A stretch of DNA of 64,000 nucleotides, from contig CAWFFU010000004.1 in NCBI GenBank assembly GCA_963815215.1, forward strand, positions 147,065 through 211,064. Direction: 5' to 3'. Positions 1-62,408 of this stretch are shown here, one piece after another. This DNA comes from an uncultured Trueperaceae bacterium (GTDB taxonomy: Bacteria; Deinococcota; Deinococci; Deinococcales; Trueperaceae). Position 1 is the first letter of the stretch, and each line of letters starts with the position of its first letter. A program made the position numbers and the translations under genes. The notes beneath the pieces are model-generated. The model did no database searches. It saw nothing but the letters and a program-made list of their open reading frames with translations, and was not told where the DNA came from.

Positions 1-545
1 ATGACCTCGTACAGCAGCCCCTGCCCGAGCGCGCCTTCGCCGAAGAAGCACACGGCCACGCGGTCCGTGCCCTGCATCCTGGCCGACAGCGCCGCGCCGG
101 TGGCGATCCCGGCGCTGCCGCCGACGATGGCGTTGGCTCCGAGGTTGCCGTTCTCCTGGTCCGCGATATGCATGCTTCCGCCCTTGCCGCGGTTGTAGCC
201 GGACGCCTTGCCCAGCAGTTCGGCGAACATCAGGTCGACCCGCGCGCCCTTGGCGATGCAGTGACCGTGCCCCCGGTGGGTGCTGGTGATGTAGTCCTCA
301 CGGGTGAGAGCGTCGCACACGCCGACCGCGACGGCCTCCTCCCCTGCGTACATGTGGGTGAGGCCGGGCATCTTGGCGCTCAGGTAGAGGTCGTTGGCGT
401 GCTCCTCGAACACCCGGATGCGCATCATCTGCCGGTAGCTGTAGAGGTGCCGCGGTGGGTCGGAGTCGGCGGACACGCCGGCCCCCGGCGCCTTGCGGCC
501 CGCCCTTTCATTGGAGGACGTGCTTGCTGTGGGTCGACCCTTCAC
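1..545 (-). CDS. TPP-dependent dehydrogenase E1 alpha subunit (AcoA/PdhA family), 5' part; runs off the window start
   Basis: Not in the ORF track. Manual minus-strand translation gives YRQMMRIRVFEE...GLTHMYAGEEAVAVG...ITSTHRGHGHCIAKG...GKGGSMHIAD...GANAIVGG...VCFFGEGALGQG. GTG at 545 follows RBS GGAAGGAG. Confidence 0.9.
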   Translation of the reverse strand, partial: MKGRPTASTSSNERAGRKAPGAGVSADSDPPRHLYSYRQMMRIRVFEEHANDLYLSAKMPGLTHMYAGEEAVAVGVCDALTREDYITSTHRGHGHCIAKGARVDLMFAELLGKASGYNRGKGGSMHIADQENGNLGANAIVGGSAGIATGAALSARMQGTDRVAVCFFGEGALGQGLLYEV

Positions 546-597
546 GCGGTGCTCCTTCCCCATGGAGCGGGAGCCGGCCGGGGCCGCGGATGGCGGC

Positions 598-1347
598 TCA
601 GGCGGCGTCACCGTCCGGCTTGTCGTCGTGGTCGCTGGTCTCGGGACCGGTCGTCTTGAGGGCCTGCCGGCTGTCCTCGCGCACCTGTGCGAGGTGGGCC
701 AGCATCGCTGTCCGGGCGGCGTCCGCGTCCCCCGCCTCGATGGCGGCGAGGATGACGCGATGGTGGCGCTGGCCGCGCGTCGGGCCGCCGCTCACCTGGA
801 AGATGTGCCCCCTGAGTTCCTGCAACAGATCCACGACCGAGTCGAGCAGGCGGGGGACGAAGTGGTTCTGGGTGGCGACGGCGAGGGCGACGTGGAAGCG
901 GTTGTCGGCCTCGATGAAGGTCTTGGCGTCGTCCAGTGCGAGGTCCATGGCGTGGACGGCGGCCCGCAGGCTCTCGAGATCGGCGTCGCTGCGCCGCAGG
1001 GCGGCGCGGGCGGCGATCTCGGGCTCCAGCAGCTCCCGAACCTCGACCATGCCGCCGATACGCTCCTCGGAGGCGAACCCCATCATCAGGCGCAACGACT
1101 GCGTGAAGGCCTTGGCGGTGCCGTCGACGACGAACGTGCCTTGGCCGCGGCGCACCTCGACCAGGCCGTTCTGGATGAGCGTCTTCATGGCCTCGCGGAT
1201 GACGGTCCGGCTGACGCCGTAGCGTTCCCCGAGGCTGCGCTCGTTGGGCAGCTGGTCCCCGCTCGTGAGCTCGCCCGAGAGGATCTGATGGCGGATCCTC
1301 TCCACGACCTGCTCGTAGAGCTTGCGGTGTTGAAGCACATCCGTCAT
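598..1347 (-). CDS. FadR/GntR-family transcriptional regulator
   Basis: N-terminal wHTH (GDQLPNERSLGERYGVSRTVIREA...RRGQGTFV) and FCD domain (EVRELLE...ADNRFH...HHRVILAAI). Confidence 0.95.
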   Translation of the reverse strand: MTDVLQHRKLYEQVVERIRHQILSGELTSGDQLPNERSLGERYGVSRTVIREAMKTLIQNGLVEVRRGQGTFVVDGTAKAFTQSLRLMMGFASEERIGGMVEVRELLEPEIAARAALRRSDADLESLRAAVHAMDLALDDAKTFIEADNRFHVALAVATQNHFVPRLLDSVVDLLQELRGHIFQVSGGPTRGQRHHRVILAAIEAGDADAARTAMLAHLAQVREDSRQALKTTGPETSDHDDKPDGDAA

Positions 1348-1668
1348 AGTGCAAACCCATGCATCAGATGAAATCTCTTGCAGGAGGTATGGTGGTAATA
1401 CCTCTGTTGGGATGGAGCGAACCTAGCATGTGCCAAGGCGCCCTGTCAAGGAAACGAGGGGGTGCGAGGGGTTTGACACGCCCATCTCGGTGTGCTAACG
1501 TTGGGCGCGTCCACAACTTGATTATGTAGGCTTTGCGATTCCTTGCGAGCCGGCGCGTCCAGCCCTGTCCGGGGCGGAGATCCGGCCCAACCAGAAGGGT
1601 GGTCCAGGCGCCCGAAGTGATCGTTTCCGTTCGGTGGTATGACCACCACACCACTAATAGTTATCGAG
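1345..1668. promoter_or_regulatory. Divergent promoter/operator cassette, copy 1
   Basis: Plus-strand promoter TTGACA (1473-1478)-17-TAACGT with TG extension. Minus-strand promoter TTGACA (1449-1444)-18-TAGGTT with TG extension. Flanking operator-like sites GAGGTATGGTGGTAATACCTC (1384-1404) and GGTGGTATGACCACC (1633-1647). Homologous to 18345-18670. Confidence 0.85.
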
Positions 1669-1774
1669 CGTGCGTTGCCGAGTCCGGGGCGGTCGGAGCC
1701 GCAGCCTGCGGGGCATCGCAGGCGTCCGAGCGCGCCGGCGACACCGTCGCGGACAGCGTGGAGGAGAACGTGAC

Positions 1775-2653
1775 ATGGCGAGACTAGGATTCGTTGGCCT
1801 CGGGGTGATGGGCGGCCGCGTGGCCAAGCGGTTGATGGATGCGGGCCACACGGTCACCGGCTACAACCGCACGCGCGCCAAGGCGCGCTGGCTGGAGGAT
1901 GCCGGCATGGCCTGGGGCGCCACCCCGCGGGCGGTCGCCGAGGCCTCCGACATCGTGTTCACGATGGTGACCAACACGACCGCCCTGGAGGCCGTGACAC
2001 AGGGCGAGGACGGCGTCCTGGCCGGACTCGTCGAGGGCAAGATCTACATCGACATGAGCACGGTCAGCCCGGCCTACAGCCGGGATCTAGCCGCCAGCGT
2101 CAAGCTGCGCGGCGCGACCATGCTCGATGCGCCGGTGTCGGGCAGCGTGGAGACCCTCGAGCAGGGCAAGCTCACCTTCATGGTGGGCGGCGAGCGCAGC
2201 GACTTCGAGAAGGTCGAGCCCATCTTGCTGAACGTGGGGCCGAAGGCTACGCACGTCGGTGCCAACGGGCTGGCGGTGACCATGAAGATCGCCACCAACC
2301 TGAGCCTGGCCGTGCAGATGCTGGCCTTCAGCGAAGGGCTGCTGCTGGCCGAGCGCAGCGGGATCGCCCGGGAGACGGCGACGGAGGTGTTGCTGAACAG
2401 CGTCATCGCCTCCCCGATGGTCAAGTACCGTGGCCCCTTCGTGCTGGCGATGCCGGACGAGGCCTGGTTCGACGTGAACATGATGCAGAAGGACATGAAC
2501 CTGGCCCTCGAGCTGGGTCAGGAGGTCAACGTCATGTTGCCCACCACGGCCGCGACCAACGAGATGTTGACCGCCGCCCGCGGGCTGGGGCTGGACAAGC
2601 AGGACTTCGCCGTCGTGTTCGAAGTGCTCTCGCGTCTCTCCGGGGGGAGCTGA
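1775..2653 (+). CDS. NAD(P)-dependent beta-hydroxyacid dehydrogenase (3-hydroxyisobutyrate / tartronate-semialdehyde reductase family)
   Basis: GFVGLGVMG Rossmann motif, DAPVSG, catalytic Lys in MKIATN, MQKD. RBS GGAGGAG before ATG 1775. Confidence 0.92.
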   Translation: MARLGFVGLGVMGGRVAKRLMDAGHTVTGYNRTRAKARWLEDAGMAWGATPRAVAEASDIVFTMVTNTTALEAVTQGEDGVLAGLVEGKIYIDMSTVSPAYSRDLAASVKLRGATMLDAPVSGSVETLEQGKLTFMVGGERSDFEKVEPILLNVGPKATHVGANGLAVTMKIATNLSLAVQMLAFSEGLLLAERSGIARETATEVLLNSVIASPMVKYRGPFVLAMPDEAWFDVNMMQKDMNLALELGQEVNVMLPTTAATNEMLTAARGLGLDKQDFAVVFEVLSRLSGGS

Positions 2654-2657
2654 GCTC

Positions 2658-4148
2658 GTGGCAGCGGAGCGACTGCGTAGCGATTCGGGCGAGCGCCGCA
2701 CATCCGCCTCCGGCGGGCAGCCCCGGCTGGGCGAGTTCGGGTGCTACGTGGCCGGGCAGTGGGTCCGCACGGGTGATCGGCTGGAGGTCCTGAGCCCCTT
2801 CGACGGCAGCCTGGTGGCGGTCGTACATCGTGCCGGCCCGGAGCAGATCGAGGCGGCCATCGCGCAGGCCACGGCGGCGTTCCAGGCCACCCGCCACATG
2901 CCGGTGTGGAAGCGGTCGGAGGCGCTGGAGGCCATCAGCGCCGGCATCCGCGAGCGCCGCGAGGACCTCGCCCAGACCATCGCGCTGGAGGCCGGCAAGC
3001 CGGTCTCGGCGGCGCGCGGCGAGGTCGACCGCGCGGCCTTCACCTTCAAGGTGGCGGCCGAGGAGGCCAAGCGCATCTACGGCGAGATCGTTCCTCTCGA
3101 CTGGATCCCCGGCCTGGAGGGGCGCGAGGCGCAGGTCCGTCACGTCCCGCTGGGACCGGTGGCGGGCATCAGCCCCTTCAACTACCCACTGAACCTGGTC
3201 GCCCACAAGGTCGCGCCGGCGTTGGCCGCCGGCGACGCCATCGTGCTGCGCCCTGCCAGCCAGACGCCCTTGAGCGCGTTGAAGCTGGCCGCCATCGTGC
3301 AGGAGTCCGGCTTCCCGGAGGGCGCCTTCAGCGTGGTCCCCAGCCGCACGGCCGACGCCGCGCCGCTCGTCGAGGACGAGCGCATCCGTTTGCTGACCTT
3401 CACCGGCAGCCCGGCGGTCGGCTGGTCGCTCAAGGGACGGGCCGGCCGCAAGCGCGTCACGCTGGAGCTCGGCGGCAACGCCGGGGTCATCGTCCACAAG
3501 GACGCCGACCTGGCATTCGCGGCCGAGCGCGTGATCTGGGGCGGCTTCCAGTACTCGGGCCAGTCGTGCGTATCGGTGCAGCGCGTCTACGTGCACGAGG
3601 ACGTCTACGACGCCTTCCGCGAGGCGTTGGTGCCACAGGTCGAGGCGCTGAGGGTGGGTGATCCACTCGACGACGCCACCGACGTGGGTCCGGTCATCGA
3701 TGCCGATGCCGCCGAGCGGATCGAGGCGTGGGTGGCCGAGGCCATCGAAGGCGGAGCGCGCCTGCTCGCCGGCGGCACCCGACGGGGCAACCTGTGGCCG
3801 CCCACGCTGCTCGAGGCCATCACGCCCTCGATGAAGGTGTGCAACCAGGAGGTCTTCGCGCCCATGATCGGGCTGTACCGCTACGCCGACGTGCTCGAGG
3901 CGATCGACGCCGTCGACGCCAGCGACTTCGGCCTGCAGGCGGGCCTGTTCACCAACGACACGCGCGTCATCCGCGAGGCCTTCGACCGCATCGAGGTCGG
4001 AGGGCTCAACATCAACGACGTCTCCACCTTCCGTGTCGATCACATGCCGTACGGCGGCGTGAAGCAGTCGGGCGCGGGACGCGAGGGGCTGCGTTACGCC
4101 ATCCAGGAGATGAGCGAGATGAAGCTGCTGACGCTCAACCCCCGGTAA
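2658..4148 (+). CDS. Aldehyde dehydrogenase
   Basis: ISPFNYPLNL, FTGS, LELGGN, catalytic Cys in GQSCVS, EVFAP, PYGGVKQSG. Confidence 0.95.
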   Translation: MAAERLRSDSGERRTSASGGQPRLGEFGCYVAGQWVRTGDRLEVLSPFDGSLVAVVHRAGPEQIEAAIAQATAAFQATRHMPVWKRSEALEAISAGIRERREDLAQTIALEAGKPVSAARGEVDRAAFTFKVAAEEAKRIYGEIVPLDWIPGLEGREAQVRHVPLGPVAGISPFNYPLNLVAHKVAPALAAGDAIVLRPASQTPLSALKLAAIVQESGFPEGAFSVVPSRTADAAPLVEDERIRLLTFTGSPAVGWSLKGRAGRKRVTLELGGNAGVIVHKDADLAFAAERVIWGGFQYSGQSCVSVQRVYVHEDVYDAFREALVPQVEALRVGDPLDDATDVGPVIDADAAERIEAWVAEAIEGGARLLAGGTRRGNLWPPTLLEAITPSMKVCNQEVFAPMIGLYRYADVLEAIDAVDASDFGLQAGLFTNDTRVIREAFDRIEVGGLNINDVSTFRVDHMPYGGVKQSGAGREGLRYAIQEMSEMKLLTLNPR

Positions 4149-4290
4149 CCGGGGTCGAGCCGTTCATGCCACGCCGCATCCCCGGAGGGAGGTGACCGCG
4201 ACCACCTGAGCGAACCGTACGCCGAGGGGCACGGATGGATCGAGACAGCCGAGGATCCGACCGGAAGACGCAGGACCTGGAGGTAGTGAG

Positions 4291-5481
4291 ATGTTCAAGA
4301 GACTTGCACTCGTGATCGCGGCGAGCGTGTTCGCCGTGACCGGGCTCGCCATGGCGCAGGGTCCCATCAAGATCGGGATCTCGCTCCCCCTGACGGGCAT
4401 GTTCTCGCAGCCGGGCGGAGCTGCGCAGAAGGGCTACAAGGTCTGGCAGAAGATCATCAACGACAACGGCGGGCTGCTGGGACGCCAGGTGGACCTCGTC
4501 ATCAAGGACGACGCCAGCGACCAGAACAGCATCGTGTCGGACTACAACCGACTGATCACGCAGGACAAGGTCGACCTCGTGCTCGGCACCTTCTCGTCGC
4601 TTCTCAACCTGCCGGCCTCGGCGGTCGCCGAGAAGTACCACATGGTGTACGTCGAGCCCGCCGGTGGCGCGCCCAAGATGTTCGAGCGCGGCTTCCAGTA
4701 CCTGTTCTTCGCGCAGCAGGCGACGGCTACGCATCAGGGCGACCAGTTCGTGAAGTGGGTGCTCTCGCTGCCGGCCGATCAGCGACCGAAGACGGCCGCC
4801 TACCCCACCCAGGACGACCCCTTCACCAAGCCGGTCATCGAGGGGATCCGCGCGCAGCTCGAGGCGGCCGGGATCAAGACCGTCTACCAGACGACCTACC
4901 CGCCCGACACCTCGAACTTCGACACCATCGCCAGCGCCATCAAGAACAGCGGCGCGGACCTGGTCGCCGAGGGTGCGGTCTTCCAGGACGGCGTCAGCAT
5001 CATCCGCTCGTTCCAGAAGCTGGGCTACAGCCCCAAGGTGCTGTTCGAGACGTCGGCGCCCTCCGAGAGCGAGCAGTTCGCCAGCGGCATCGGTGCGGCC
5101 AACACCGAGGGCATCTTCTACGCGGTGAGCTGGCACCAGGATCTCACGACGCCGATGAACAAGCAGTTCGTCGACACCTACCAGCAGATGTACGGGGCGG
5201 ACCAGATCCCTGCCGAGGACGCCGCCGACGCGTTCGCTTCGGCGCAGGTGCTGCAGACGGCGGTCACCGCGGTCGGCTCCCTCGACCAGACCAAGATCAA
5301 GGACTACCTGCACGCCAACACCGTCCCGACCATCCTCGGACCGCTGTCCTGGGACAAGACGGGCGCTCCGCAGTCCAACTTCCTGCTCGCCCAGTGGCAG
5401 AAGGGCAAGGCGGAGATCGTGCTGCCGCGCGACGTCGCGACGTCGCCGACGATCACCTTCCCGAAGCCTGGGTGGAAGTAG
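4291..5481 (+). CDS. LIV-type (branched-chain amino acid family) ABC substrate-binding protein, copy 1
   Basis: Signal peptide, PIKIGISLPLTG, NGGLLGRQVDLVIKDD. Followed by LivH/M/G/F-type genes. Confidence 0.92.
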   Translation: MFKRLALVIAASVFAVTGLAMAQGPIKIGISLPLTGMFSQPGGAAQKGYKVWQKIINDNGGLLGRQVDLVIKDDASDQNSIVSDYNRLITQDKVDLVLGTFSSLLNLPASAVAEKYHMVYVEPAGGAPKMFERGFQYLFFAQQATATHQGDQFVKWVLSLPADQRPKTAAYPTQDDPFTKPVIEGIRAQLEAAGIKTVYQTTYPPDTSNFDTIASAIKNSGADLVAEGAVFQDGVSIIRSFQKLGYSPKVLFETSAPSESEQFASGIGAANTEGIFYAVSWHQDLTTPMNKQFVDTYQQMYGADQIPAEDAADAFASAQVLQTAVTAVGSLDQTKIKDYLHANTVPTILGPLSWDKTGAPQSNFLLAQWQKGKAEIVLPRDVATSPTITFPKPGWK

Positions 5482-5502
5482 GCCTCTCGCATATGCGCGG
5501 AA

Positions 5503-5524
5503 GGGGCCCCCGCAGGGGGGCCCC
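5503..5524 (+). terminator. Stem-loop after the SBP gene (mRNA stabiliser or partial terminator)
   Basis: GGGGCCCCC-GCAG-GGGGGCCCC, 9-bp stem, no U tract. Confidence 0.5.
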
Positions 5525-5596
5525 GCTCCGCCTCAGGACCCCGCCGGCGGGGCGCGTCCTGGTGGACGTCCCCAGCGCCGGCGCACGAGGAGTTCC

Positions 5597-6478
5597 ATGA
5601 CGCTGTTGGTCCAGACGATCTTCCTGGGGTTGCTCATCGGGGGGGTCTACGCCCTGTTCGCGTCCGGTCTCACGCTGGTCTTCGGGGTCATGGGGATCGT
5701 CAACGTGGCGCACCCCGCGTTCCTGGTGCTGGCCGGCCTCTTCACCTACGAGCTGTGGTCCCGTCTGGGGGTGGACCCGCTCCTCCTCACGCTGGTCACC
5801 ACGCCGGTGATGTTCGCGCTCGGATGGCTGGTCTACAAGGGACTCATCGCGCGGGTGCGTTCGGGACCGGTCTCGATGTCGGTCGTGCTGACCTTCGGCC
5901 TCGCCATCGCGCTCGAAGGCGCCATGGGGATGACCTGGAAGAACGTCTTCCGTTCGGTCACGCCCCCCTATTTCAACCAATCGTTCCACCTCGGGGCACT
6001 GGTGTTTCCCAAGGCCCAGGTCTTCGGTTGCATCGCCGCCGTGGTGGTCCTGCTGCTGCTCTATCTGCTGCTCACCAAGACCTGGATCGGGCGCGCCATC
6101 CGCGGCGCGTCGGAGAACCCCGAGGGGGCGCACCTCGTCGGCATCGACATCGGTGCGGTGGCGGCGCTGACGTTCGCCATCGGCGCCGCCACCGCCGGCG
6201 TGGGCGGATCGGTCATGTCGATCCTCTACCCGATCTTCCCGGCCTCCCAGTACGTATGGATCTCCCGCACCCTCGGCATCATCGTGCTGGGCGGCATGGG
6301 GAGCCTGCCCGGGGCCGTGTTGGGGGCGCTGATCCTGGGCGCCGCCGAGACCCTGACCGCCACCTACATCTCCACGCAGTGGGCGGTGGTGGTCTTCTAC
6401 CTCGTCATCCTGGTGGTGCTCATGGTGCGCCCGGAGGGCCTGATGGGCGCCCGCGTGCGGAAGGACGTGGTGGCGTGA
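5597..6478 (+). CDS. LivH-type ABC permease
   Basis: GGVYALFASGLTLVFGVMGIVNVAH; GRAIRGASEN...GID; IVLGGMGSLPGA. Confidence 0.93.
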   Translation: MTLLVQTIFLGLLIGGVYALFASGLTLVFGVMGIVNVAHPAFLVLAGLFTYELWSRLGVDPLLLTLVTTPVMFALGWLVYKGLIARVRSGPVSMSVVLTFGLAIALEGAMGMTWKNVFRSVTPPYFNQSFHLGALVFPKAQVFGCIAAVVVLLLLYLLLTKTWIGRAIRGASENPEGAHLVGIDIGAVAALTFAIGAATAGVGGSVMSILYPIFPASQYVWISRTLGIIVLGGMGSLPGAVLGALILGAAETLTATYISTQWAVVVFYLVILVVLMVRPEGLMGARVRKDVVA

Positions 6479-8337
6479 CCGCGAACCCCCGAGCCGCCGC
6501 GCCGCGCCGGTCGTTCCTCACCTGGCGCAACGTGGCGCTCGCGCTCGCCGGGGCGGCGCTGGTCGCCTTCCCGCTGGTCCGGCCCGGTGACCAGTACTAC
6601 CAGACCGTCCTCATCCTGATCTTCGTGCTCGGGGTGATGGCGACCGGTTGGAACGTGATCGCCGGCTTCACCGGCTACATCTCGCTGGGCCAGAGCGCCT
6701 TCCTGGGGCTGGGCGCGTATACCGTCGGTCTGCTCACGCGGGTCGTGCACGTCTCGCCTTTCGTGCTGGCGCCGCTGGGCGGCATCGTGGCGGCGGTGGT
6801 GGCGGCGCTGCTGGGCTCCACCATCATGCGTACCCGCGAGCACGCCTACGTGATCATCACCATCGCCTTCCTGTTCCTGATGCAGGCCATCGGTCTGAAC
6901 GCGCCCGGTCTCACCGGCGGTTCGGACGGCATCACGCTCCCGCTCCCTTCATGGGGTCTCGGCATCGGCAACATGCCGTTCTATTACGCGCTGTTCGGGC
7001 TCATGCTGTTGTCGGTCCTGATGACGTGGTGGATCCGCCGGACCAAGTTCGGGATGGGCCTGATCGCCATCCGCGAGGACGAGGACAAGGCGGCCGCCAT
7101 CGGCGTGCGGACCAGCGTCTACAAGATCCTCGCCACCGTTGCCAGCGGCGTGCTCATCGGCGTGGCCGGCGGGGTGTACGCGTACTTCCTGACGTTCATC
7201 GACCCGCGCGGCATGTTCGCCATCCTGGTGAGCGTCCAGATCGTGCTGGCGACGTTGTTGGGCGGCCTCGGAACGATCTGGGGTCCCGTGCTCGGCGCCT
7301 TCCTGGTCGTGCCCATGAACGAGGTGACCAACAACGTCATGGCGGCACAGGGCGTGCACCTGTTCGTGTTCGGCCTGGTACTGATGGCGGTGGTGATGTT
7401 CCTGCCGCGCGGGCTCATCCCGACCCTCCGTGGCTGGGTCGAGAGCCGACGCAAGTCCACTGTCGCCTTCGAACGGCGGCAGAGCGTGCCGAGCGTGCTC
7501 GAGCTCAGCACGCCGCCGATGGCGGTGGGGCGGGACCGCGGGTCGCCGCGGGCAGCCGGTGAAGGTCCGCCGCTGTTGCAGGTCGACGGGCTGGTGAAGC
7601 GCTTCGGCGGCATCACCGCTGTCGACGGGTGCTCGTTCAAGGTGGCAGACGGCAGCCTTACCGGCCTCATCGGCCCCAACGGCTCGGGCAAGACCACGGT
7701 GTTCAATCTCGTCAGCGGGATGATGCGTGCCAACGAGGGCGTCATCCGGCTCGCCGGCGAACGCATCGACGCGCTGCAACCCTGGGACCGGGCGTACCGC
7801 GGGCTGGGGCGCACCTTCCAGAGCACCCGGCTGTTCCCCAAGCTGACCGTGATGGAGAACGTGGTGGCGCCCCTCAAGCGCTTCGACTGGTCGCTGCTCC
7901 CGGCCGACGCCGTGAGCGGGCGCGAGGCCAAGCGGGGGCTCGAGCTCCTCGACTTCGTGGGGCTGGCCGACTTCGGGCAGCAGCCGGCGTGGCAGCTCTC
8001 CTTCGGGCAGAAGAAGCTGGTCGAGCTGGCGCAACTCCTCATGCTCGAGCCCCGCCTGATCCTGCTCGACGAGCCGGCCGGCGGCATCAACCCCGGCCTG
8101 ATCGAGCGCATCTCGGACACCATCCGCGCCCTCAACAAGCAGGGCCTCACCTTCGTGATCGTGGAGCACAACATGCCGATGGTCCTCGACCTGTGCGATT
8201 CGATGCTGGTGATGGCGCGCGGCAGCGTGATCGCCGAGGGCAGTCCCGACGAGATCCAGAGCAACCCGGTGGTGCTCGACGCCTACCTGGGCGAGGACTG
8301 GAACCGCGAGGCCGAGCTCGAGGAGGCGAGGGCCTGA
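6475..8337 (+). CDS. Fused LivM-type permease / LivG-type ATPase
   Basis: GTG overlaps the livH stop. [15 protein letters not shown] permease half, then Walker [17 protein letters not shown] and LLDEP. Confidence 0.92.
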
Positions 8338-9071: not shown

Positions 9072-9158
9072 ACGCCGGCCGCGCCACGCCGGTCGGCGTC
9101 GCCTCCCGCGGCGCCCGGCCGCCTGGGGGCGGAGGCCGCTCGCCGGGAGGCGGCAACG

Positions 9159-11095: not shown

Positions 11096-11135
11096 TGATG
11101 GGCCTCGATCGCTCCTGGGAACGCACGGTGCCGGC

Positions 11136-16026: not shown

Positions 16027-16116
16027 GCTGCGGGTCGGGCGGGACCGCGGCGCGCGCGGGGCGCGACCGCAAGATTCGAAGGCGCGTGCGCGGCACGGGC
16101 CGGAAGGAGTGAGACC

Positions 16117-16746: not shown

Positions 16747-16780
16747 GGCGTCGACGCCGGCCGCAAGGGGTCGCTGCCCG

Positions 16781-18250
16781 TCAGTCGTCCTGCGAGAAGT
16801 CCATCTGGATGGCCTTCACCCGGCTGAAGCTTCGCATCGCTTCGAGGAAGTCCTTCTTGCGCCCGACGCCGCTGCGCTTGTAGCCGCCGAAGGGCAGGCC
16901 CAACTCGCCGGTGTTGACACGGTTGACCGACACGACGCCCGCCTCGATGCGCGTCGCCATGCGGTGGGCCACGCCCAGGTCGCGGGTCCATACGCCGCTG
17001 GTGAGTCCGTAGTCGACGGCGTTGGCGATGGCCACTGCTTCGTCCTCGTCTTCGAAGGGCAGGATGCCGGCCACCGGCCCGAACACCTCGGTGGTCATGA
17101 TCTCGGCATCGGGCGCGGCCTCGGTGACGATCGTCGGCGGCACCCAGAAGCCGCCCTCCAGGCGAGCGTCCGAGGGCACGTCGGCGCGGGCGGGGATGCA
17201 GGCTCCGGCGGCGACGGCGCGGTCCAGGGCGCCCTGCACCTTCTCCTGCTGGCGCTTGCTCACCATCGGGCCCACGATGGAGCGCTCGTCGAACCCGTCG
17301 CCGACGCTCAGGCCGGCGACCGCCGAGGTGAAGCGCTCCATGAAGGTGGTGTAGATGGACTCGTGCACCAGCACCCGTTCGCTGCCCGAGCACGCCTGGC
17401 CGCTGTTGAAGAAGGCGCTGCGCACCATGCCCTGCACCGCTCGGCCGAGGTCGGCGTCGGGGAAGATGATGGACGCGTTCTTGCCGCCCAGCTCCATCAT
17501 GGTGGGCAGGATGCGGGTGGCGGCCGCGGCGAGGATCTTCTCGCCGGTGAGGTCCGAGCCCGTGAAGGCGATGAAGTCGATGCCTCGGTGCGCCACCAGC
17601 TGCACCCCGGTATCGACGCCGCCGGTCACGACGTTGAGCACGCCTGGCGGCAGCACGTCGGCGGCCAGCTCGGCGATGCGCAGCGACGACAGCGGCGTCT
17701 CGGGCGCGGGCTTGAGCACCACGGTGTTGCCGGTGGCGAGCGCCAGCGCCGCGAAGTCCGCGGTGTGCATCGGAGGCCAGTTCCAGGGGATGATGACGGC
17801 CACCACTCCGTAGGGCTCGTAGACGATCTTGCGCATCTCGCTCAGGCCGTCGTAGACGCTCTGGCCGTAGAACTTGTCGGCTGCGCCGGCGTAGAAGCGG
17901 AAGGTGCGCGCGGCGTTGGTGACGTCGCGCGCCGACTGGGCGCGCGGCTTGCCGTTCTCCCAGGTCTCGAGGTCGACGAGCTCGTCGTGGTGTTCGTGGA
18001 TGCGGCGGGCGATCTCGAACAGCATCGCGCCGCGCTTCTCGGGACTCACCCAACGCCAGCCGCGGTAGGCCTGCCGGGCCGAGACGACCGCCCGGTCGAC
18101 GTCGGCCTCGCTGGCCGCCGGCGCCTCGCCGAGCACCTGCCCGGTGGCGGGGTTGATGACCTCCAGCGCTGTCGCGCCGCCGCCGTCGACGAACTCCCCG
18201 CCGATGAGCATCTTCCAGCTTGCGTGGTCCTTGTAGGGGTGGTAGGCCAT
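16781..18250 (-). CDS. Aldehyde dehydrogenase (betaine-aldehyde / aromatic semialdehyde type)
   Basis: IPWNWP, KPAPETP, FTGS, MELGGKN, GQACSG, EVFGPV, PFGGYKRSG. RBS GAAGGAG before ATG 18250. Confidence 0.93.
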   Translation of the reverse strand: MAYHPYKDHASWKMLIGGEFVDGGGATALEVINPATGQVLGEAPAASEADVDRAVVSARQAYRGWRWVSPEKRGAMLFEIARRIHEHHDELVDLETWENGKPRAQSARDVTNAARTFRFYAGAADKFYGQSVYDGLSEMRKIVYEPYGVVAVIIPWNWPPMHTADFAALALATGNTVVLKPAPETPLSSLRIAELAADVLPPGVLNVVTGGVDTGVQLVAHRGIDFIAFTGSDLTGEKILAAAATRILPTMMELGGKNASIIFPDADLGRAVQGMVRSAFFNSGQACSGSERVLVHESIYTTFMERFTSAVAGLSVGDGFDERSIVGPMVSKRQQEKVQGALDRAVAAGACIPARADVPSDARLEGGFWVPPTIVTEAAPDAEIMTTEVFGPVAGILPFEDEDEAVAIANAVDYGLTSGVWTRDLGVAHRMATRIEAGVVSVNRVNTGELGLPFGGYKRSGVGRKKDFLEAMRSFSRVKAIQMDFSQDD

Positions 18251-18344
18251 CCGCTGTCTCCTTCGCCGGGGGCCGTCCCCGGCGGGCCGCCACACGACCT
18301 CGGGCGCCTGCGGCCTACGCCGCGCGCCCAGGATCGCTGGAGTG

Positions 18345-18670
18345 TCCGCCAGAGTGCAAGCGCATACACAGGATGTAAGGTCTTGCAGGACGTATGGTGG
18401 TCATACCTCTCAGGCTCGTCGTGAACGTAGCATGTTCCTCGCGTCCCTGTCAAGGAACGCGGCGCCGGATCGGGGTTTGACAGCCCCGCGCCGTTGTGCT
18501 AGTTTGAGCGGCGTCCACAACTTGCTTATGGTACCCTCACCGCTACGCTCGAGCGGCCCGGGCACCGCTTCACTTGGCGAAGCTGTCCACGGTCCAAGGA
18601 GCCGCTCGCATGCGACGTCGTTCATCGAACTTCCGGTGGTATGACCACCACACCACGAATACTTATCGAA
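18345..18670. promoter_or_regulatory. Divergent promoter/operator cassette, copy 2
   Basis: Plus-strand TTGACA (18477-18482)-17-TAGTTT. Minus-strand TTGACA (18453-18448)-18-TACGTT. Operator-like GTATGGTGGTCATACCTCT (18392-18410) and GGTGGTATGACCACC (18635-18649). Same order and promoter spacings as copy 1. Confidence 0.85.
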
Positions 18671-18955
18671 CTTCCTGTCGATTCCTGGAACGGCGGCGCA
18701 CCGTCGCGCGTACGTGCGGCCCGATCCTGCGCTCCCGTCCCCTGTCGGCCGCCTCGCGGCCCTCGTCCGGTGTGTTCTCACTGGAGGTGTTCGTTCACGG
18801 CATGGCGGTCGCCCACGTTCCGGCGGCGCGGTCCTCCATGCGTAGCGGGGAGGTGAGCGGGTCCATCTGACAGGGCGCGCCGAGCGTACGTGGGGTCCGC
18901 CCGACGTGCCGCCCAGAACACCTTAGGCATCACCTGCTTGCCCTTGGAGGCAGAC

Positions 18956-20155
18956 ATGTACAAGAGGATCACGGCGCTCGTCGCCGCGGCCGCGCTGCTG
19001 GCAGTGCTCGGCTTCGCAGCGGCGCAGGGCCCCATCAAGATCGGTATCTCGCTCTCGCTCTCTGGCGACTTCTCGGCCGACGGCCAGGGCTTCCAGAACG
19101 GCTATCAGCTATGGGCGGACCACGTCAACGCGACCGGCGGGCTTCTCGGGCGGCAGGTGCAGCTCGACATCGTCAACGACAACTCGAGCCCCGACCAGGT
19201 CCAGACCAACTACCAGAAGCTCATCACGGTGGACAAGGTGCCGTTGATCCTGGGGCCGTTCTCGACGCTGCTCACCAAGCCCGCTTCGGTGGTGGCGAAC
19301 CGCTACGGCTACGCCATGGTGGAGGGCGCGGGCGGCGCGCCGTCGGTCTTCAACCGCGGGCTGAACAACGTCTTCGACGTGGCGCTCCCGGTCATCAACG
19401 ACCTCGACAGCTTCACCCAGTACATCCTCTCGCTGCCGGCTTCACAGCGGCCCAAGACGGTGGCCTACGCGACCAATGACGATCCCTTCACGCAGCCGCA
19501 GGTCGAGCGTTCGCGCAAGTTGTTCGAGGCCGCCGGCCTGAAGACGGTGTCGTTCCAGACCTATCCGTCGGAGACGACCGACTTCAACCCCATCGCCGAC
19601 AAGATCATCCAGTCGAAGGCCGATCTGGTCGTGGCGGGCACCTTCATGCCCGACATCGTGGCCTTCGTGCAACGCTTCCGGCAGCAGCACTACAACCCCC
19701 AGGGTCTGGTCGCCACGGCCGGGCCCGACCTCGGCTCGCAGTTCATCCAGGCCGTCGGCGGAGCGCAGAACGCCGAGGGCATCCTGGTGCCGAACACCTG
19801 GTACCCGGGCGCCGACAATGCGGGCAACGCCGACTTCGTCAAGGCCTACATCGCCAAGTACGGCGGCAAGGCCGCCGACATCAACGGTGATGCGGCCGAG
19901 GGCTACGCCGCGGGCCAGGTCCTGCAGGCCGCCGTCGAGAAGGTGGGCAGCCTCGACAACGCCAAGATCATCGCCGAGCTCCACTCCGGCGACACCTTCA
20001 AGAGCATCCTCGGCGATGTGACCTTCAACGGCGTGGGCGAGAACACCGCGGCCAAGGCGTACCTGTTCCAGTGGCAGAAGGGCCAGTACCTGCCCGTCTA
20101 CCCGGACAGCGCAGCGGTGGCTCCGTTCGAGTTCCCCAAGCCGGCCTGGAAGTGA
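18956..20155 (+). CDS. LIV-type ABC substrate-binding protein, copy 2
   Basis: Signal peptide, AQGPIKIGISL. Paralog of 4291-5481 (shared LPxxQRPKTxAY...DDPFT and C-terminal FPKPxWK). Confidence 0.92.
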   Translation: MYKRITALVAAAALLAVLGFAAAQGPIKIGISLSLSGDFSADGQGFQNGYQLWADHVNATGGLLGRQVQLDIVNDNSSPDQVQTNYQKLITVDKVPLILGPFSTLLTKPASVVANRYGYAMVEGAGGAPSVFNRGLNNVFDVALPVINDLDSFTQYILSLPASQRPKTVAYATNDDPFTQPQVERSRKLFEAAGLKTVSFQTYPSETTDFNPIADKIIQSKADLVVAGTFMPDIVAFVQRFRQQHYNPQGLVATAGPDLGSQFIQAVGGAQNAEGILVPNTWYPGADNAGNADFVKAYIAKYGGKAADINGDAAEGYAAGQVLQAAVEKVGSLDNAKIIAELHSGDTFKSILGDVTFNGVGENTAAKAYLFQWQKGQYLPVYPDSAAVAPFEFPKPAWK

Positions 20156-20175
20156 AGTGAGGAACTCCGGGTTCT

Positions 20176-20205
20176 GGAGGGACGGCGCGCGAGCGCCGTC
20201 CCTCC
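20176..20205 (+). terminator. Stem-loop after the SBP gene
   Basis: GGAGGGACGGCGC-GCGA-GCGCCGTCCCTCC, perfect 13-bp stem with a GNRA loop. Confidence 0.6.
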
Positions 20206-20278
20206 CTCACCATCGCGGCGCCCGTCGGCCAGGGCGGGCGCGCGAGCGACGCGCCGTCACCGACTGCGGACGCGAGCC

Positions 20279-21154
20279 ATGCGCATAGTCGTCGACGCCA
20301 TCATCACGGGCGTGCTCTCCGGCGGGATCTACGTTCTCATGGCGCTCGGGCTGACGCTGATCTTCGGTGTGATGGACATCATCAACGTGGGTCAGGGAGC
20401 GCTCGTGATCCTGGGTGCCTACCTCAGCTACGTCCTGCAGCAGTACCTCCACATCGACCTGTTCCTCGGGCTGCTCATCACCATGCCCGTGATGTTCGGG
20501 CTCGGGGTGGCGCTGGAGGCGGCCTTCGTGCGCCCCATCCGCTGGGAACGCACCACCCTGTCCATCCTCGTCACCTTCGCTATCGCGCTGCTCATCCAGG
20601 GGGCGTTGTCGCTCGTATTCTCGACCAACCTGGTGCAGATGCACGCCTGGTACGTCGATCACTCGGTGAAGATCGGCAGCTTCTACCTGGCGTGGGTCTA
20701 TATCTTCGACTTCCTGCTGAGCGTGGTGCTGGTGACCGGGCTCTACCTGCTCCTCAACCGCACCAAGTTCGGTGCGAGCCTGCGCGCCTCGATGCAGAAC
20801 CGCACGGCCGCGCAGCTCATCGGCATCGACGTCGAGCGGGTCTCGGCGATCACCTTCGGTATCGGGGTGGCGTTGGCGGCGGCCGGGGGCATGGCCTACG
20901 GCGCGACCTCGGCGTTCAACCCCAACAGCCAGTACGACCTGATCTCGCGCCTGCTGGCGATCATCATCCTGGGAGGCATGGGCAGCCTGCGCGGCGCCGT
21001 CATCGCAGGCCTCGGGATGCTCGTCGTCGAGGACGTCACCTCGGTGGTGTGGTCGCCGGTGTGGGCCAGCACGGTGTTCTACATGGCCCTGGTGCTGGTG
21101 CTGGTGGTCCGGCCGCAGGGCCTGTTCGGACGCCTCGCAGGAAGGCAGCAATGA
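20279..21154 (+). CDS. LivH-type ABC permease
   Basis: GGIYVLMALGLTLIFGVMDIINVGQG; IILGGMGSLRGA. Confidence 0.93.
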   Translation: MRIVVDAIITGVLSGGIYVLMALGLTLIFGVMDIINVGQGALVILGAYLSYVLQQYLHIDLFLGLLITMPVMFGLGVALEAAFVRPIRWERTTLSILVTFAIALLIQGALSLVFSTNLVQMHAWYVDHSVKIGSFYLAWVYIFDFLLSVVLVTGLYLLLNRTKFGASLRASMQNRTAAQLIGIDVERVSAITFGIGVALAAAGGMAYGATSAFNPNSQYDLISRLLAIIILGGMGSLRGAVIAGLGMLVVEDVTSVVWSPVWASTVFYMALVLVLVVRPQGLFGRLAGRQQ

Positions 21155-22200
21155 AGACCCTGCGCCCCGTCCTCCTGCTCGTCCTGCTGGCTCTGGCGGT
21201 CGTGTTCCCGCTGCTGTTCCCCAACCCCGCGGTCGACACGGTGGCGGTCCTCACCGTCCTCTTCGCGACCGCGGTCACCGCCTGGAACGCCTTCTCGGGC
21301 TACAGCGGTTACATCTCCATCGGCCACGCGGCGTTCTTCGGCATCGGTTCCTACGCCGTCGCCATCTTGTGCCAGGACTGGCACGTCCCCGGCGGATACC
21401 TGCCCTTCCTGCTGCTGCCGGTCGCCGGGCTCATCGCCGTGGTGTTCGCCGTCCCGATGGGCTGGGTGGCGCTCAGGACGCGCAAGCACACCTTCGTCAT
21501 CCTGACCATCGCGATGTTCTTCATCATGCAGCTCATGGCGTTCAACCTCCGCGGCCTCACCAACGGCTCGCGGGGCATGAGCCTGCCCATCCCCACCCAC
21601 TGGAGCGGCGCCTTCTACGACCTGCCCTTCTACTACGTGGGGCTGGCCCTGCTGCTGCTGGCGCTGGCGGTCTCGTGGTGGATCCGCAACTCCAAGTACG
21701 GCCTGGGTCTGCTGGCGATCCGCGACGACGAGGATCGCGCCCGCGGCCTCGGCGTGCGTACGGGAGCGTTCAAGCTCACCGCCTTCGTGATCGCCGCCTT
21801 CTTCTTCGGGATGGTCGGCGGCCTGCACGCCTACTTCGTGGAGTCGATCTTCCCGGCTTTCGCGTTCGACCCGCTGATCGACCTGATGGTCGCCCTGATG
21901 GCGTTCCTGGGCGGACTCGGCACGCTGGCGGGGCCGGTCCTGGGGGCCGTGATCCTGGAGCCGGCCCAACAGTACTTCACCATCTGGTTCAGCCGGCCCG
22001 GCTACTACCTGATGATCTACGGGGCGCTGTTCCTGGTCATCATCCTGCTCCTGCCCCAGGGCATCATCCCTGCCCTGCGCGCCCGCTTCACGCGCTCCGA
22101 GGCGCTGGCGGGACCGGTACGGCACACTGAGGGCGGCGACGGCCTGTCGGGAGCGGCCGTGGCCGCCGAGGGTGAGCCGGAACGAGGGGGTGGAGCATGA
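21151..22200 (+). CDS. LivM-type ABC permease
   Basis: WNAFSGYSGYISIGHAAFFG; LAIRDDEDRARGLG; LGGLGTLAGPVLGA. Confidence 0.93.
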   Translation: MKTLRPVLLLVLLALAVVFPLLFPNPAVDTVAVLTVLFATAVTAWNAFSGYSGYISIGHAAFFGIGSYAVAILCQDWHVPGGYLPFLLLPVAGLIAVVFAVPMGWVALRTRKHTFVILTIAMFFIMQLMAFNLRGLTNGSRGMSLPIPTHWSGAFYDLPFYYVGLALLLLALAVSWWIRNSKYGLGLLAIRDDEDRARGLGVRTGAFKLTAFVIAAFFFGMVGGLHAYFVESIFPAFAFDPLIDLMVALMAFLGGLGTLAGPVLGAVILEPAQQYFTIWFSRPGYYLMIYGALFLVIILLLPQGIIPALRARFTRSEALAGPVRHTEGGDGLSGAAVAAEGEPERGGGA

Positions 22201-22928
22201 GCCTGCTCGCGGCAACGGCGGTGTCGAAGGCGTTCGGAGGCGTGCAAGCGCTCGACAACTGCTCGATCACGGTCGAGAAGGGGAGCCTCACCGGGCTCAT
22301 CGGCCCCAACGGCTCGGGCAAGACCACGTTGTTCAACGTCATGACCGGCTACGAGACGGTGGACGCCGGCGAGGTCGCCTTCGCCGGCAAGCCCATCACC
22401 AATGCCACTCCCGACCGGGTGTTCCAGCTCGGCGTCGGCCGCACCTTCCAGCTCACCCGCATCTTCCCGCGCCTGACGGTGCTGGAGAACATGCACGTGG
22501 CGGCGCAGCGGCAGGGGTGGCGGGCGTTGTTCGGGCGCTGGAGCTCGTCGGGGGAGCACCAGAGGGCCTTGGAGCTGCTCGATTTCGTGGGCCTCACCCG
22601 CCTCAAGGACGTGCCCGCGCGCAACCTCTCCTACGGCCAGAAGAAGCTGCTGGAGTTCGCCTACGTGCTGGTGGCCGAGCCCGAGGTGATCCTGCTCGAC
22701 GAGCCCGCCGGCGGCGTCAACCCGACGATGATCCGCTACCTTACCGAGCGGATCCGCGAGCTCAACGAGCGCGGGGTGACCTTCCTGATGGTGGAGCACA
22801 ACATGGAGTTCGTGATGGGGCTATGCGACCGCGTCGTCGTCATGAACCACGGCGAGACGATCGCCGACGGCGACCCTGAGACCGTCCGCAACGATCAACA
22901 GGTCCTCGAAGCCTACCTGGGGGCATGA
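22197..22928 (+). CDS. LivG-type ABC ATPase
   Basis: [29 protein letters not shown]. Confidence 0.94.
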   Translation: MSLLAATAVSKAFGGVQALDNCSITVEKGSLTGLIGPNGSGKTTLFNVMTGYETVDAGEVAFAGKPITNATPDRVFQLGVGRTFQLTRIFPRLTVLENMHVAAQRQGWRALFGRWSSSGEHQRALELLDFVGLTRLKDVPARNLSYGQKKLLEFAYVLVAEPEVILLDEPAGGVNPTMIRYLTERIRELNERGVTFLMVEHNMEFVMGLCDRVVVMNHGETIADGDPETVRNDQQVLEAYLGA

Positions 22929-23653
22929 GCATGCTTCTCGAGTTGCGCAAGGTGACGGCCGGCTACGACGGCAGCGACGTGCTCAAGTCCCTCGACCTCA
23001 CGGTGGAGGAGGGTTCGGTCACCTGCATCGTCGGGCCCAACGGCGCCGGCAAGTCGACGGTGCTCAAGGTGGTGAGTGGCCTGCTCAAGCCGCGGCGCGG
23101 CGAGATCGTCTTCAAGGGGCGCGGCGTCACCGGCCTCAACCCCCGCGGGGCGCTGGCGCTCGGCATCGTCCAGGTGCCGCAGAACCACAGCCTGTTCCCC
23201 GACATGACGGTGCGGGAGAACGTGCGCCTGGGTGGCTTCACCATCGCCGACACGGCCCTGGTCGACGAACGCATGCGTGAGGTCGAGGCCATGTTCCCGA
23301 TCGTGAAGGCGCGCGCCGGAGAGAAGGCGGGCAACCTCTCGGGCGGTCAGCAAAGGCTGGTGGAGTTCGCCCGCTCGCTGATGCTCGATCCCGAGATGAT
23401 CCTGCTCGACGAGCCCTCGATGGGCCTCGACCCGAAGACCTCGAAGGCCGTGTTCGAGACCGTCGCCCGCATGCACCAGGGGGGCCGCACCATCCTCCTG
23501 GTCGAGCAGAACGTTCGGGCCGGCCTCGCCATCGCCACCCACGGCATCGTGCTGGAGAGCGGGCAGGTGCGTCTCGAAGGCTCGCACGACGAGGTCCTCG
23601 GCAACCCACAGATCGGCAGGCTCTACCTCGGCACCGCCCTCGCCGACGCCTGA
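22925..23653 (+). CDS. LivF-type ABC ATPase
   Basis: [25 protein letters not shown]. Confidence 0.94.
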   Translation: MSMLLELRKVTAGYDGSDVLKSLDLTVEEGSVTCIVGPNGAGKSTVLKVVSGLLKPRRGEIVFKGRGVTGLNPRGALALGIVQVPQNHSLFPDMTVRENVRLGGFTIADTALVDERMREVEAMFPIVKARAGEKAGNLSGGQQRLVEFARSLMLDPEMILLDEPSMGLDPKTSKAVFETVARMHQGGRTILLVEQNVRAGLAIATHGIVLESGQVRLEGSHDEVLGNPQIGRLYLGTALADA

Positions 23654-28662: not shown

Positions 28663-28702
28663 GCGGCGTTCGCATCTGCGGAGTTGGCTTATGCTGGCCC
28701 GC

Positions 28703-52464: not shown

Positions 52465-52468
52465 GGGC

Positions 52469-55560: not shown

Positions 55561-55564
55561 AGCA

Positions 55565-62380: not shown

Positions 62381-62408
62381 GAGAACGGCTCCGATGGCGC
62401 CTTCGGAT

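Follow-up and report, generated by a model that had tools for sequence, protein, structure and literature searches.

A few described systems come close, one gene at a time, to the locus reported here. In nicotine clusters, as we take their composition to be, a flavoenzyme and aldehyde dehydrogenases (ALDHs) lie beside 2,6-dihydroxypseudooxynicotine (DHPON) hydrolase. Creatinase, an enzyme of the M24 'pita-bread' fold, lacks the canonical M24 metal ligands. DddP is another M24-fold enzyme, and the solved structure 4b28 is that of RdDddP, according to PMC4108388. A preprint (10.1101/168930) argues that the dimethylsulfoniopropionate (DMSP)-lyase activity of DddP is promiscuous and that its native function is disputed or unknown. 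Human PYROXD2 is described, in PMC8777681, as a protein of unknown biochemical function to which no reaction is assigned. PMC5780481 reports a missense variant of PYROXD2 associated with N-methylpipecolate and an earlier tie of the gene to urinary trimethylamine and dimethylamine. We found relatives of these proteins in a single locus of an uncultured Trueperaceae bacterium (Deinococcota). The window, meaning the whole stretch of 64,000 nucleotides that was analysed (G000:C4:147065-211064, contig CAWFFU010000004.1), comes from a 3.3-Mb genome in 14 contigs that is 97.15% complete. About 26 genes make up the locus, a genuine co-regulated set in this salt-marsh-type bacterium. With a little more confidence than doubt, we read this mosaic locus as one repressor-controlled regulon that would import and degrade a small N-containing carboxylic acid, judging from its sequences.

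Layout and control of the locus

Because the window DNA is about 70% G+C, genes were called by third-position G+C and then verified with Pfam and NCBIfam. The Pfam scan took in 27 open reading frames (ORFs) of the window, a first NCBIfam scan 13 cluster proteins and a second NCBIfam scan five proteins. The regulon is laid out as four transcription units, the larger part of which lies inside the window. Unit 1, on the minus strand, carries the genes for the regulator, the thiamine pyrophosphate (TPP)-dependent E1alpha and E1beta, a DddP-like M24 protein with a cysteine at a metal-ligand position (M24(Cys)) and E2, and runs past the left edge of the window. Unit 2, on the plus strand, has 14 genes, from a dehydrogenase of the 3-hydroxyisobutyrate dehydrogenase (HIBADH) type to an AhpD-like gene. 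Unit 3 (minus strand) is the second ALDH gene alone, and unit 4 (plus strand) is a second LIV importer. A preliminary description, made from the letters of the window, had named the gene families, and all of them are present at their positions in Pfam, NCBIfam and solved-structure searches. Its account of the extent stood for the window genes, and its left end did not: to the left of the window, in a stretch here called L070, the minus strand continues downstream of the regulator with E1alpha, E1beta, M24 and E2, so that E1beta, the DddP-like M24 and E2 had been missed. The features are as follows, with window positions unless L070 is given.

L070:12880-14109, minus strand: E2 with lipoyl and E3-binding domains (Pfam)
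L070:14137-15508, minus strand: DddP-like M24 protein, M24(Cys), between E1beta and E2 (solved relatives 4s00/4rzy/4b28, up to 4.1e-26; NF043017, 126.7 bits)
L070:16570-17676, minus strand: full E1alpha gene (PF00676, 4.6e-75; TIGR03182, 326 bits)
3-611, minus strand: 5' part of the gene for the TPP-dependent E1alpha (TIGR03182, 168 bits on the fragment)
598-1347, minus strand: GntR-family regulator with FCD domain, FadR subfamily type, first gene of the minus-strand operon (PF00392, 5e-25; PF07729, 7.3e-30)
1348-1774: divergent control region 1, between GntR and HIBADH, with an imperfect operator at 1391-1405 and an exact palindromic operator at 1633-1647
1670-2653, plus strand: HIBADH/tartronate-semialdehyde-reductase-type dehydrogenase (PF03446, 2.3e-48; PF14833); from the sequence, the true start is probably the ATG at 1775
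2658-4148, plus strand: ALDH1, lactaldehyde/sulfoacetaldehyde/succinate-semialdehyde-like (PF00171, 1e-146)
4291-9071, plus strand: LIV-type ABC importer 1 (Pfam, NCBIfam), with a substrate-binding protein (SBP; 4291-5481), two permeases (5597-6478, 6475-7562) and two ATPases (about 7576-8337, 8337-9071)
9159-10091, plus strand: EamA-family membrane transporter (PF00892, 1.4e-20)
10088-11095, plus strand: Amidohydro_2 enzyme of the ACMSD/LigW decarboxylase group (PF04909, 1.8e-37, full profile)
11136-12716, plus strand: PYROXD2/CrtI-like FAD oxidoreductase, 526 aa (PF01593)
12709-13767, plus strand: alpha/beta hydrolase of the DHPON-hydrolase/AntI/Ayg1 C-C hydrolase group (PF06500; GxSxG as 'GVSLG')
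13760-14965, plus strand: M24 'pita-bread' enzyme (PF00557, PF01321)
14962-16026, plus strand: Gfo/Idh/MocA NAD(P) oxidoreductase (PF01408, PF22725)
16117-16746, plus strand: AhpD/CMD-fold protein, YciW-related, with a CEYC (CxxC) motif (PF02627, 9.4e-5)
16781-18295, minus strand: ALDH2, aminobutyraldehyde/betaine-aldehyde type (PF00171, 1.3e-154)
18296-18889: divergent control region 2, between ALDH2 and LIV importer 2, a copy of region 1, with an imperfect operator at 18396-18410 and an exact one at 18635-18649
18890-23653, plus strand: LIV-type ABC importer 2 (Pfam), with an SBP (18890-20155), two permeases (20279-21154, 21151-22200) and two ATPases (22197-22928, 22925-23653)
after 23653: gene for a CCG/4Fe-4S protein, outside the set (Pfam)

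The genes had been called largely translationally coupled, and inspection of the sequence agrees: in the long operon, neighbouring genes overlap or are at most 4 nt apart at 7 of 13 junctions. Starts and stops overlap by 1-8 nt at LivH1/LivM1, LivG1/LivF1, EamA/ACMSD, FAD/DHPONH, DHPONH/M24 and M24/Gfo, and HIBADH and ALDH1 are separated by 4 nt; overlaps are also found at three of the four junctions of the second LIV operon. We took 23653 as the right boundary; the next gene encodes the CCG/4Fe-4S protein and is preceded by a GC hairpin. This 12-bp hairpin after the LivF2 stop (-28.9 kcal/mol, z -2.3) is suggestive only, and a hairpin after the AhpD-like gene was not significant (z -1.2). Terminator-like sites are at chance level (5 observed, 5.3 expected), and a sigma-70 promoter scan found no promoter.

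The regulator has an N-terminal GntR winged helix-turn-helix and a C-terminal FCD domain in Pfam, as in the FadR subfamily, and its best NCBIfam match is NanR (152 bits against a cut-off of 260). By tblastn, orthologues that are 47-52% identical stand next to the core module described below in other phyla. The two divergent control regions align across about 330 bp and represent a common cassette. Each has an imperfect site beside the minus-strand gene and, at a distance of about 240 bp, a perfect copy of the palindrome GGTGGTATGACCACC. This 15-nt palindrome occurs exactly twice in the 3.3-Mb genome, once in each divergent region, and its core, TGGTATGACCA, matches TnGTnnnACnA, which we take to be the palindromic operator consensus of the FadR subfamily. 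When up to two mismatches were allowed, the 15-mer gave nine matches in the genome and its reversed control gave 20. As loose matches are thus rarer than those of the control, only the exact sites and their imperfect partners in the same regions carry weight. Elsewhere in the genome, sites that deviate at one or two positions were dismissed, as the control gave more of them and the one-mismatch site lies within long ORFs.

The operator sites are found at the same places in related loci (L011, L012, L014, L081-L083; proteins 76-98% identical), the most distant of which are L014 and L082 (76-79% protein identity). An orthologous regulator with 39-52% identity heads an ALDH-GntR-HIBADH-E1 operon in six loci of other phyla (Acidobacteriota, Verrucomicrobiota, Chloroflexota and Armatimonadota). 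In four of these six, the whole 12-21 kb contains a single TGGTnnnACCA, at the first gene or at most about 145 bp upstream of it. There is therefore good comparative evidence, on the sequence level, that one FadR-type repressor controls all four units, and this duplicated and phylogenetically conserved operator supports the earlier proposal of a single GntR/FCD regulator with a common operator cassette. Most likely, the repressor would bind the TGGTATGACCA palindromes, two sites in each duplicated divergent promoter region, and binding of a carboxylate effector would release it from them.

Both LIV importers had been assigned to the set. The nearest solved relatives of SBP1 are the amino-acid-binding proteins 3ip5 (1.5e-25) and 4n0q, and that of SBP2 is 4n0q (1.2e-21); the two SBPs are only about 45% identical to each other. 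In tblastn searches, the LIV1 type is the sole importer in a spirochaete locus (L015) beside ACMSD, FAD and DHPONH genes, and the LIV2 type is the sole importer in two actinobacterial loci (L016 and L053) beside the same enzyme genes. As each type thus stands alone beside these enzymes in other phyla, both importers belong with the enzymes, in line with that assignment. The EamA transporter is less constant. It is present here (9072-10091) and missing between LivF1 and the ACMSD-like gene in G008/L011 (L083:11757-11872), a relative that is 97-98% identical and otherwise collinear in this operon; the difference is a recent gain or loss.

Distribution of the core and accessory modules

The FAD enzyme is the most widely conserved gene of the set. 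Its best 120 clusters are all at least 67% identical, and relatives of the gene were located in 57 genome loci across many phyla. Closer to home, 40 relatives were compared: orthologues with at least 77% identity occur in five of the nine genomes of the same genus and in one of the 15 genomes of other genera in the family. No orthologue was found in the 16 genomes of the order's other families, which have only paralogues with at most 38% identity. The trait is accessory and patchy.

We searched the 57 FAD-gene loci with the window proteins by tblastn; many of these loci are cut by contig ends, and the counts are lower bounds. The commonest partner is HIBADH (at least 22 of the 57), followed by E1alpha (at least 14, with 10 at 59% identity or more), the DHPONH-like hydrolase (at least 14, with nine at 61% or more), the ACMSD-like enzyme (at least 11), GntR and EamA (at least nine each), M24 and the AhpD-like protein (at least eight each), Gfo (at least six) and ALDH2 at 73% or more (at least four). 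A LacI-type regulator takes the place of GntR in 10 loci.

Unbiased clustering of all ORFs, with annotation of the recurrent clusters, separates two modules. The core module has the order (ALDH)-GntR-HIBADH-E1alpha-E1beta-M24(Cys)-E2-(SDF symporter)-FAD, nearly identical in Acidobacteriota, Udaeobacter (Verrucomicrobiota), Limnocylindria (Chloroflexota), Eisenbacteria and an armatimonadote. The accessory module, EamA-ACMSD-like-FAD-DHPONH-like-M24 with or without the AhpD-like and Gfo genes, was seen in Deinococcota, a spirochaete, Actinomycetes (Actinomycetota) and an armatimonadote. The core occurs without accessory genes in L028-L036, and the accessory block without E1/E2 in L015 and L016. 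G003, G008 and G019 keep the Trueperaceae arrangement in full, E2-M24-E1beta-E1alpha-GntR included. The locus is thus an evolutionary mosaic of a pan-phylum core and an accessory module, and not one indivisible pathway. It had been described as one complete route from uptake to central metabolism; a catabolic cluster it is, and its completeness and unity are doubtful, because the whole set is found only in Deinococcota relatives and the modules recombine elsewhere.

The core is often followed by a cytochrome-c/2Fe-2S/Mo-hydroxylase trio. Genes for a multihaem cytochrome c, a 2Fe-2S subunit and an IorB-like Mo-hydroxylase large subunit lie downstream of FAD in L028, L030, L033, L034 and L062.

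Other neighbourhoods of the FAD gene vary more. In Alphaproteobacteria it lies between a TRZ/ATZ-type aminohydrolase gene (PRK08204, 491.8 bits) and TctC receptor genes, and in Acidimicrobiia it accompanies Dpp-type importers and is also followed by the AhpD-like gene. Further neighbours are a CocE/NonD hydrolase gene and a creatininase-family gene. A small cupin in four related loci matches Cupin_2, not a 3-hydroxyanthranilate dioxygenase family. A Haloarcula plasmid carries the FAD gene with an M24 gene, a creatininase-family gene, E2/Lpd and an ALDH2 with 56% identity. This plasmid, of Haloarcula ordinaria, was considered as a model of the full set and set aside, for it has a subset only (FAD 49%, ALDH2 56%, M24 30%, E2/Lpd nearby), with no E1 match in the searched stretches.

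Unusual enzymes and a possible degradation route

Two of the enzymes are M24-fold proteins with altered metal sites. In the window M24, the prolidase residues D209/D220/H284/E313/E327, which we take to be the dinuclear-metal ligands, align with E246/Q257/H319/Q361/G376, so that only the histidine is kept and the five-ligand pattern of M24 metallopeptidases is absent. The same loss is seen in eight of the nine members of its protein cluster, the window copy counted. With one of five ligands left, the enzyme is read as non-canonical and, from its sequence, probably not a peptidase; in the solved-structure search it is nearer to prolidases (1.3e-20) than to creatinase (8.9e-8) or DoeA (2.3e-4). 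The DddP-like M24 family has a cysteine at the second ligand position (D, C, H, E, E; 'GYRTCYYRT') in all 12 aligned full-length members, where the alignment columns are those that we take as ligand positions from known M24 motif patterns. In 14 loci its gene separates E1beta from E2; M24(Cys) genes beside E1beta were recorded in L018, L025, L028-L036, L050, L053, L054 and L065.

E1alpha is nearer to human pyruvate dehydrogenase (PDH) E1alpha (2.1e-55) than to the branched-chain 2-oxoacid dehydrogenase (BCKDH) protein (6.6e-27), and E1beta exceeds the PDH-E1beta 'subfamily' cut-off (389 against 321), alone among the five proteins of the second NCBIfam scan. E2 is more divergent. Its 'DHR' motif lacks the catalytic histidine, having become 'DRS' in this genome and G003 and 'DPG' in G019, and the PF00198 score is as low as 11 bits; E2 orthologues in other phyla retain DHR. 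The protein is also fast-evolving, with 46% identity to that of G019 against 76-82% for the neighbouring genes. E2 may be a lipoyl carrier without acyltransferase activity, encoded near the AhpD-like CxxC protein.

For the remaining enzymes, the matches are as follows. The ACMSD-like protein matches human ACMSD (2wm1) with an E-value of 5.9e-36; an N-terminal HxH ('DVHCH') is present and His/Asp candidates are visible on inspection of the sequence. The DHPONH-like hydrolase matches 2jbw (2.6e-47) and AntI (2.1e-16). HIBADH scores 211.6 bits with TIGR01505 (cut-off 340.75) and 176.1 with TIGR01692 (cut-off 291.6). The top NCBIfam score of ALDH1 is 460.8 against 650, and ALDH2 reaches 428.3 of 615 bits with NF010000. 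Gfo scores 95 bits with IolG (cut-off 355) and also matches xylose dehydrogenase in NCBIfam, and the AhpD-like protein scores 58 bits with the YciW-related NF053654 (cut-off 310).

We infer the substrate class, the order of steps and every reaction of the following scheme from genes, coupling, an operator and conservation that are observed. The substrate, for example an N-alkylated or cyclic amino-acid, amidine or guanidino derivative, would be imported through the two amino-acid-type LIV systems. The two unusual M24-fold enzymes might open a C-N bond, after which the PYROXD2-like flavoenzyme could dehydrogenate a C-N or C-C bond. The resulting beta-dicarbonyl would be cleaved by the DHPON-hydrolase-like C-C hydrolase, and the ACMSD-like enzyme would then decarboxylate or hydrate. 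A 2-oxoacid or alpha-ketol could finally pass to the TPP E1 and lipoyl-E2, a 3-hydroxyacid to HIBADH and on to ALDH1, and an amino-aldehyde to ALDH2. An N-containing, cyclic or N-methylated substrate is plausible but circumstantial by analogy, because C-N hydrolase partners occur in all contexts, the SBPs are of the amino-acid type and human PYROXD2 has the metabolite associations given above. The nearest relatives of the SBPs, the amino-aldehyde type of ALDH2 and the aminohydrolase, Dpp and creatininase neighbours elsewhere share this leaning.

Several points weigh against a single regulon for one N-containing acid. The PYROXD2 link comes from automatic cluster names, not from an alignment to the human protein, and aromatic acids, amides and urea are further ligands of LIV-type SBPs. 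A frameshift near L070:14880 interrupts the DddP-like M24 gene in this assembly; G003, G019 and G008 have an unbroken copy. A base at L070:14880 is missing in contigs from three of four public sequencing runs, the fourth having no bridging contig; the runs, in which no more than 0.44 of the words sampled from the off-window stretch were present, were used for this check only. With one base fewer in the contigs of three of the four runs, the break is probably either an artefact of the assembly or a lesion of this strain. Together with the lost catalytic histidine of E2, this frameshift means that the E1/E2 arm may work differently here or may be decaying. Moreover, the full gene set never occurs together outside Deinococcota among the 57 loci, and the set may therefore serve more than one substrate.

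This last point leads to the alternative of two or more separate, co-regulated pathways, in which the core acts on one compound and the accessory block, ALDH2 and LIV2 act on related others. We regard this as a possibility in earnest, though a minor one. It would account for the loci with core only (L028-L036) or accessory genes without E1/E2 (L015/L016), for importers that occur singly and have SBPs of only about 45% identity, and for the presence or absence of EamA between relatives that are 97-98% identical. Against this, a single duplicated operator cassette is common to all four units, three genomes of the family keep the whole set together, and the FAD gene, stop/start-overlapped inside the accessory block here, lies beside the core in other phyla. 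Several of the enzymes also fit N-free chemistry: the ACMSD-like protein resembles LigW, Gfo resembles LigC/IolG, and the CMD and alpha/beta hydrolase proteins resemble PcaC/PcaD. The substrate might then be a hydroxylated aromatic or lignin-derived carboxylate, or a cyclitol or sugar acid bound by LIV-type SBPs, and degraded by these LigW-, LigC/IolG- and PcaC/PcaD-like enzymes with a beta-diketone hydrolase. The ACMSD-like protein does match LigW, the 5-carboxyvanillate decarboxylase (9.6e-24), and gamma-resorcylate decarboxylase (4.1e-20), Gfo matches IolG and xylose dehydrogenase, the hydrolase weakly matches PcaD/PcaDC, the AhpD-like protein has the CMD fold, and LacI-type regulators replace GntR in 10 loci. 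We nevertheless consider an N-free substrate unlikely. The cluster has no ring-cleaving dioxygenase or aromatic hydroxylase, the SBPs are nearest to amino-acid binders, and two M24 C-N hydrolase-fold enzymes, an amino-aldehyde-type ALDH and an amine-oxidase-family flavoenzyme are encoded together, with aminohydrolase and peptide-importer neighbours in other contexts.

The regulon for an N-containing acid can be put in a more specific form, to which we give only limited credence. It would be an undescribed degradation route for N-alkylated or cyclic amino acids or onium zwitterions, run by the PYROXD2-like flavoenzyme, HIBADH, E1, M24(Cys), lipoyl-E2 and GntR. In it, an M24-fold non-peptidase would cleave a C-N or C-S bond and a PDH-like E1 would process the carbon skeleton on a lipoyl carrier, with a dispensable acyltransferase core. 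Candidates may be N-methylpipecolate-type compounds, amidine osmolytes and S-methylmethionine-like sulfonium acids. If true, the operon would reveal what the PYROXD2 family, with its human member, and the DddP-like M24 clade do biochemically.

Some genes elsewhere in the window are mentioned for completeness. After the gene for an 866-aa PAS-PAS-GAF-HD(HD_5) signalling protein (26062-28662, plus strand) come those for SCO1/SenC (28691-29311) and, on the minus strand, a Crp-family regulator (29385-30050). At 51769-52479 (minus strand), a PIN-domain gene and the small ORF upstream of it are a probable VapBC-type toxin-antitoxin pair. A polysaccharide locus (54679-63722, minus strand), where G+C falls to 0.63-0.65, encodes a sugar transferase, two glycosyltransferases and three separate Wzy_C (O-antigen-ligase-like) membrane proteins.

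Comparison with described systems

None of the 13 cluster proteins of the first NCBIfam scan reaches a curated cut-off, and we found no description of this gene combination in the literature searched, which excludes subscription-only papers and supplements. The preliminary description had found no matching pathway, and with cut-offs unreached, defining partner enzymes missing from the cluster and no account in that literature, we come to the same view. It had also seen no ring-cleaving dioxygenase or Mo-hydroxylase. The cluster likewise has no ring-cleaving dioxygenase or aromatic hydroxylase in Pfam; PF02738, the Mo-hydroxylase of the xanthine dehydrogenase (XDH) type, has no match in the 97.15%-complete genome, where a positive control matched in 6 of 14 genomes, and a c47-type Mo subunit query found nothing in the genome. 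XDH-family genes lie near FAD in 14 of the 57 other loci. As none was found in this genome, an N-heteroaromatic route initiated by a Mo-hydroxylase cannot apply here and was rejected.

We also rejected the pathways for nicotine, ectoine, creatine, valine, acetoin, kynurenine and protocatechuate 4,5-cleavage, on NCBIfam cut-offs and missing partner genes. That the cluster is a diverged copy of the nicotine pyridine, Doe, creatine, valine/BCKDH, Aco or kynurenine/ACMS pathway seems highly improbable. What recalls these pathways is single enzymes only: DHPON hydrolase (2.6e-47), ACMSD (5.9e-36), weakly DoeA and creatinase, the PDH/Aco-like E1alpha/beta and E2, and HIBADH with ALDH, as at the end of valine catabolism. 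The absence of any protein at an equivalog cut-off, of the defining partner enzymes in the cluster and of PF02738 in the genome speaks against such a copy, as does an E1alpha nearer to PDH than to BCKDH.

The best solved relative of the DHPONH-like product, matched over nearly its full length, is the Arthrobacter 2,6-dihydroxypseudooxynicotine hydrolase 2jbw; like DHPON hydrolase, AntI and Ayg1, the product has an alpha/beta fold with a GxSxG nucleophile motif, and its gene lies near those of an amine-oxidase-family flavoenzyme and ALDHs. In contrast to the pAO1-type nicotine pathway, no Mo-hydroxylase was found in the genome, the cluster lacks the 6-hydroxynicotine oxidase and dihydroxypyridine hydroxylase families, and the flavoenzyme is CrtI/PYROXD2-like, not like monoamine oxidase. 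With creatinase and DoeA, the window M24 shares the Creatinase_N and M24 two-domain architecture and its place in a catabolic operon, and with creatinase the absence of canonical metal ligands, four of five in this case. It differs in being nearer to prolidases and in a cluster without sarcosine oxidase or a DoeB/C/D set. Its scores for ectoine DoeA are low (TIGR02993, 40.9 bits against 613; NF038259, 30.5 against 575), and no DoeD aminotransferase or DoeB deacetylase family is among the Pfam hits of the 27 window ORFs. Valine catabolism differs by the PDH-like E1alpha and a HIBADH below the TIGR01692 cut-off, and the cluster Pfam hits include no acyl-CoA dehydrogenase, enoyl-CoA hydratase or aminotransferase, nor, as the kynurenine pathway would have, the 3-hydroxyanthranilate dioxygenase family.

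The heterotetrameric-type E1alpha/E1beta and the E2 with lipoyl and E3-binding domains resemble PDH and AcoABCL. The differences are the M24 gene between E1beta and E2, a cluster without an E3 gene, the catalytic histidine of E2 lost in this family (here, G003 and G019), and an AcoC score (NF011457) of 78.9 bits against 307 that comes from the lipoyl part only. DddP is the best solved and best NCBIfam relative of M24(Cys). The latter falls short of the NF043017 cut-off (126.7 bits against 600), has a cysteine instead of aspartate at the second ligand and thus departs from Asp/Asp/His/Glu/Glu, which we take to be the DddP ligand list, and its context is that of soil and sediment organisms with TPP E1. 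The FAD enzyme has the PF01593/PF13450 architecture of PYROXD2 and CrtI, and its only full-length solved relative is the CrtI structure 4dgk (1.1e-17). Atlas neighbours of a stored homologue are automatically named 'PYROXD2' or 'phytoene desaturase family' (scores 0.98-0.99, TM 0.91-0.97). Its crtI_fam score of 109.5 bits (cut-off 238.1) and CrtO score of 281 (cut-off 1000) set it apart from CrtI and CrtO, and its gene lies in catabolic, not in carotenoid operons.

Repressor-controlled catabolic operons are familiar, yet no described pathway matches this one. Identities of 50-80% link its core enzymes in eight or more phyla, represented almost entirely by uncultured bacteria from soil, sediment and sponges. 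This breadth, together with the lack of a matching pathway, indicates a substrate or type of reaction that is common in the environment and off the metabolic map. Beside its orphan enzymes (PYROXD2-like, metal-less M24, M24(Cys) and His-less E2), the locus offers a defined operator and two binding proteins open to direct screening. The identity of their ligand would annotate thousands of metagenomic genes, and might throw light both on what human PYROXD2 does and on the native role of DddP-type enzymes, which is in dispute.

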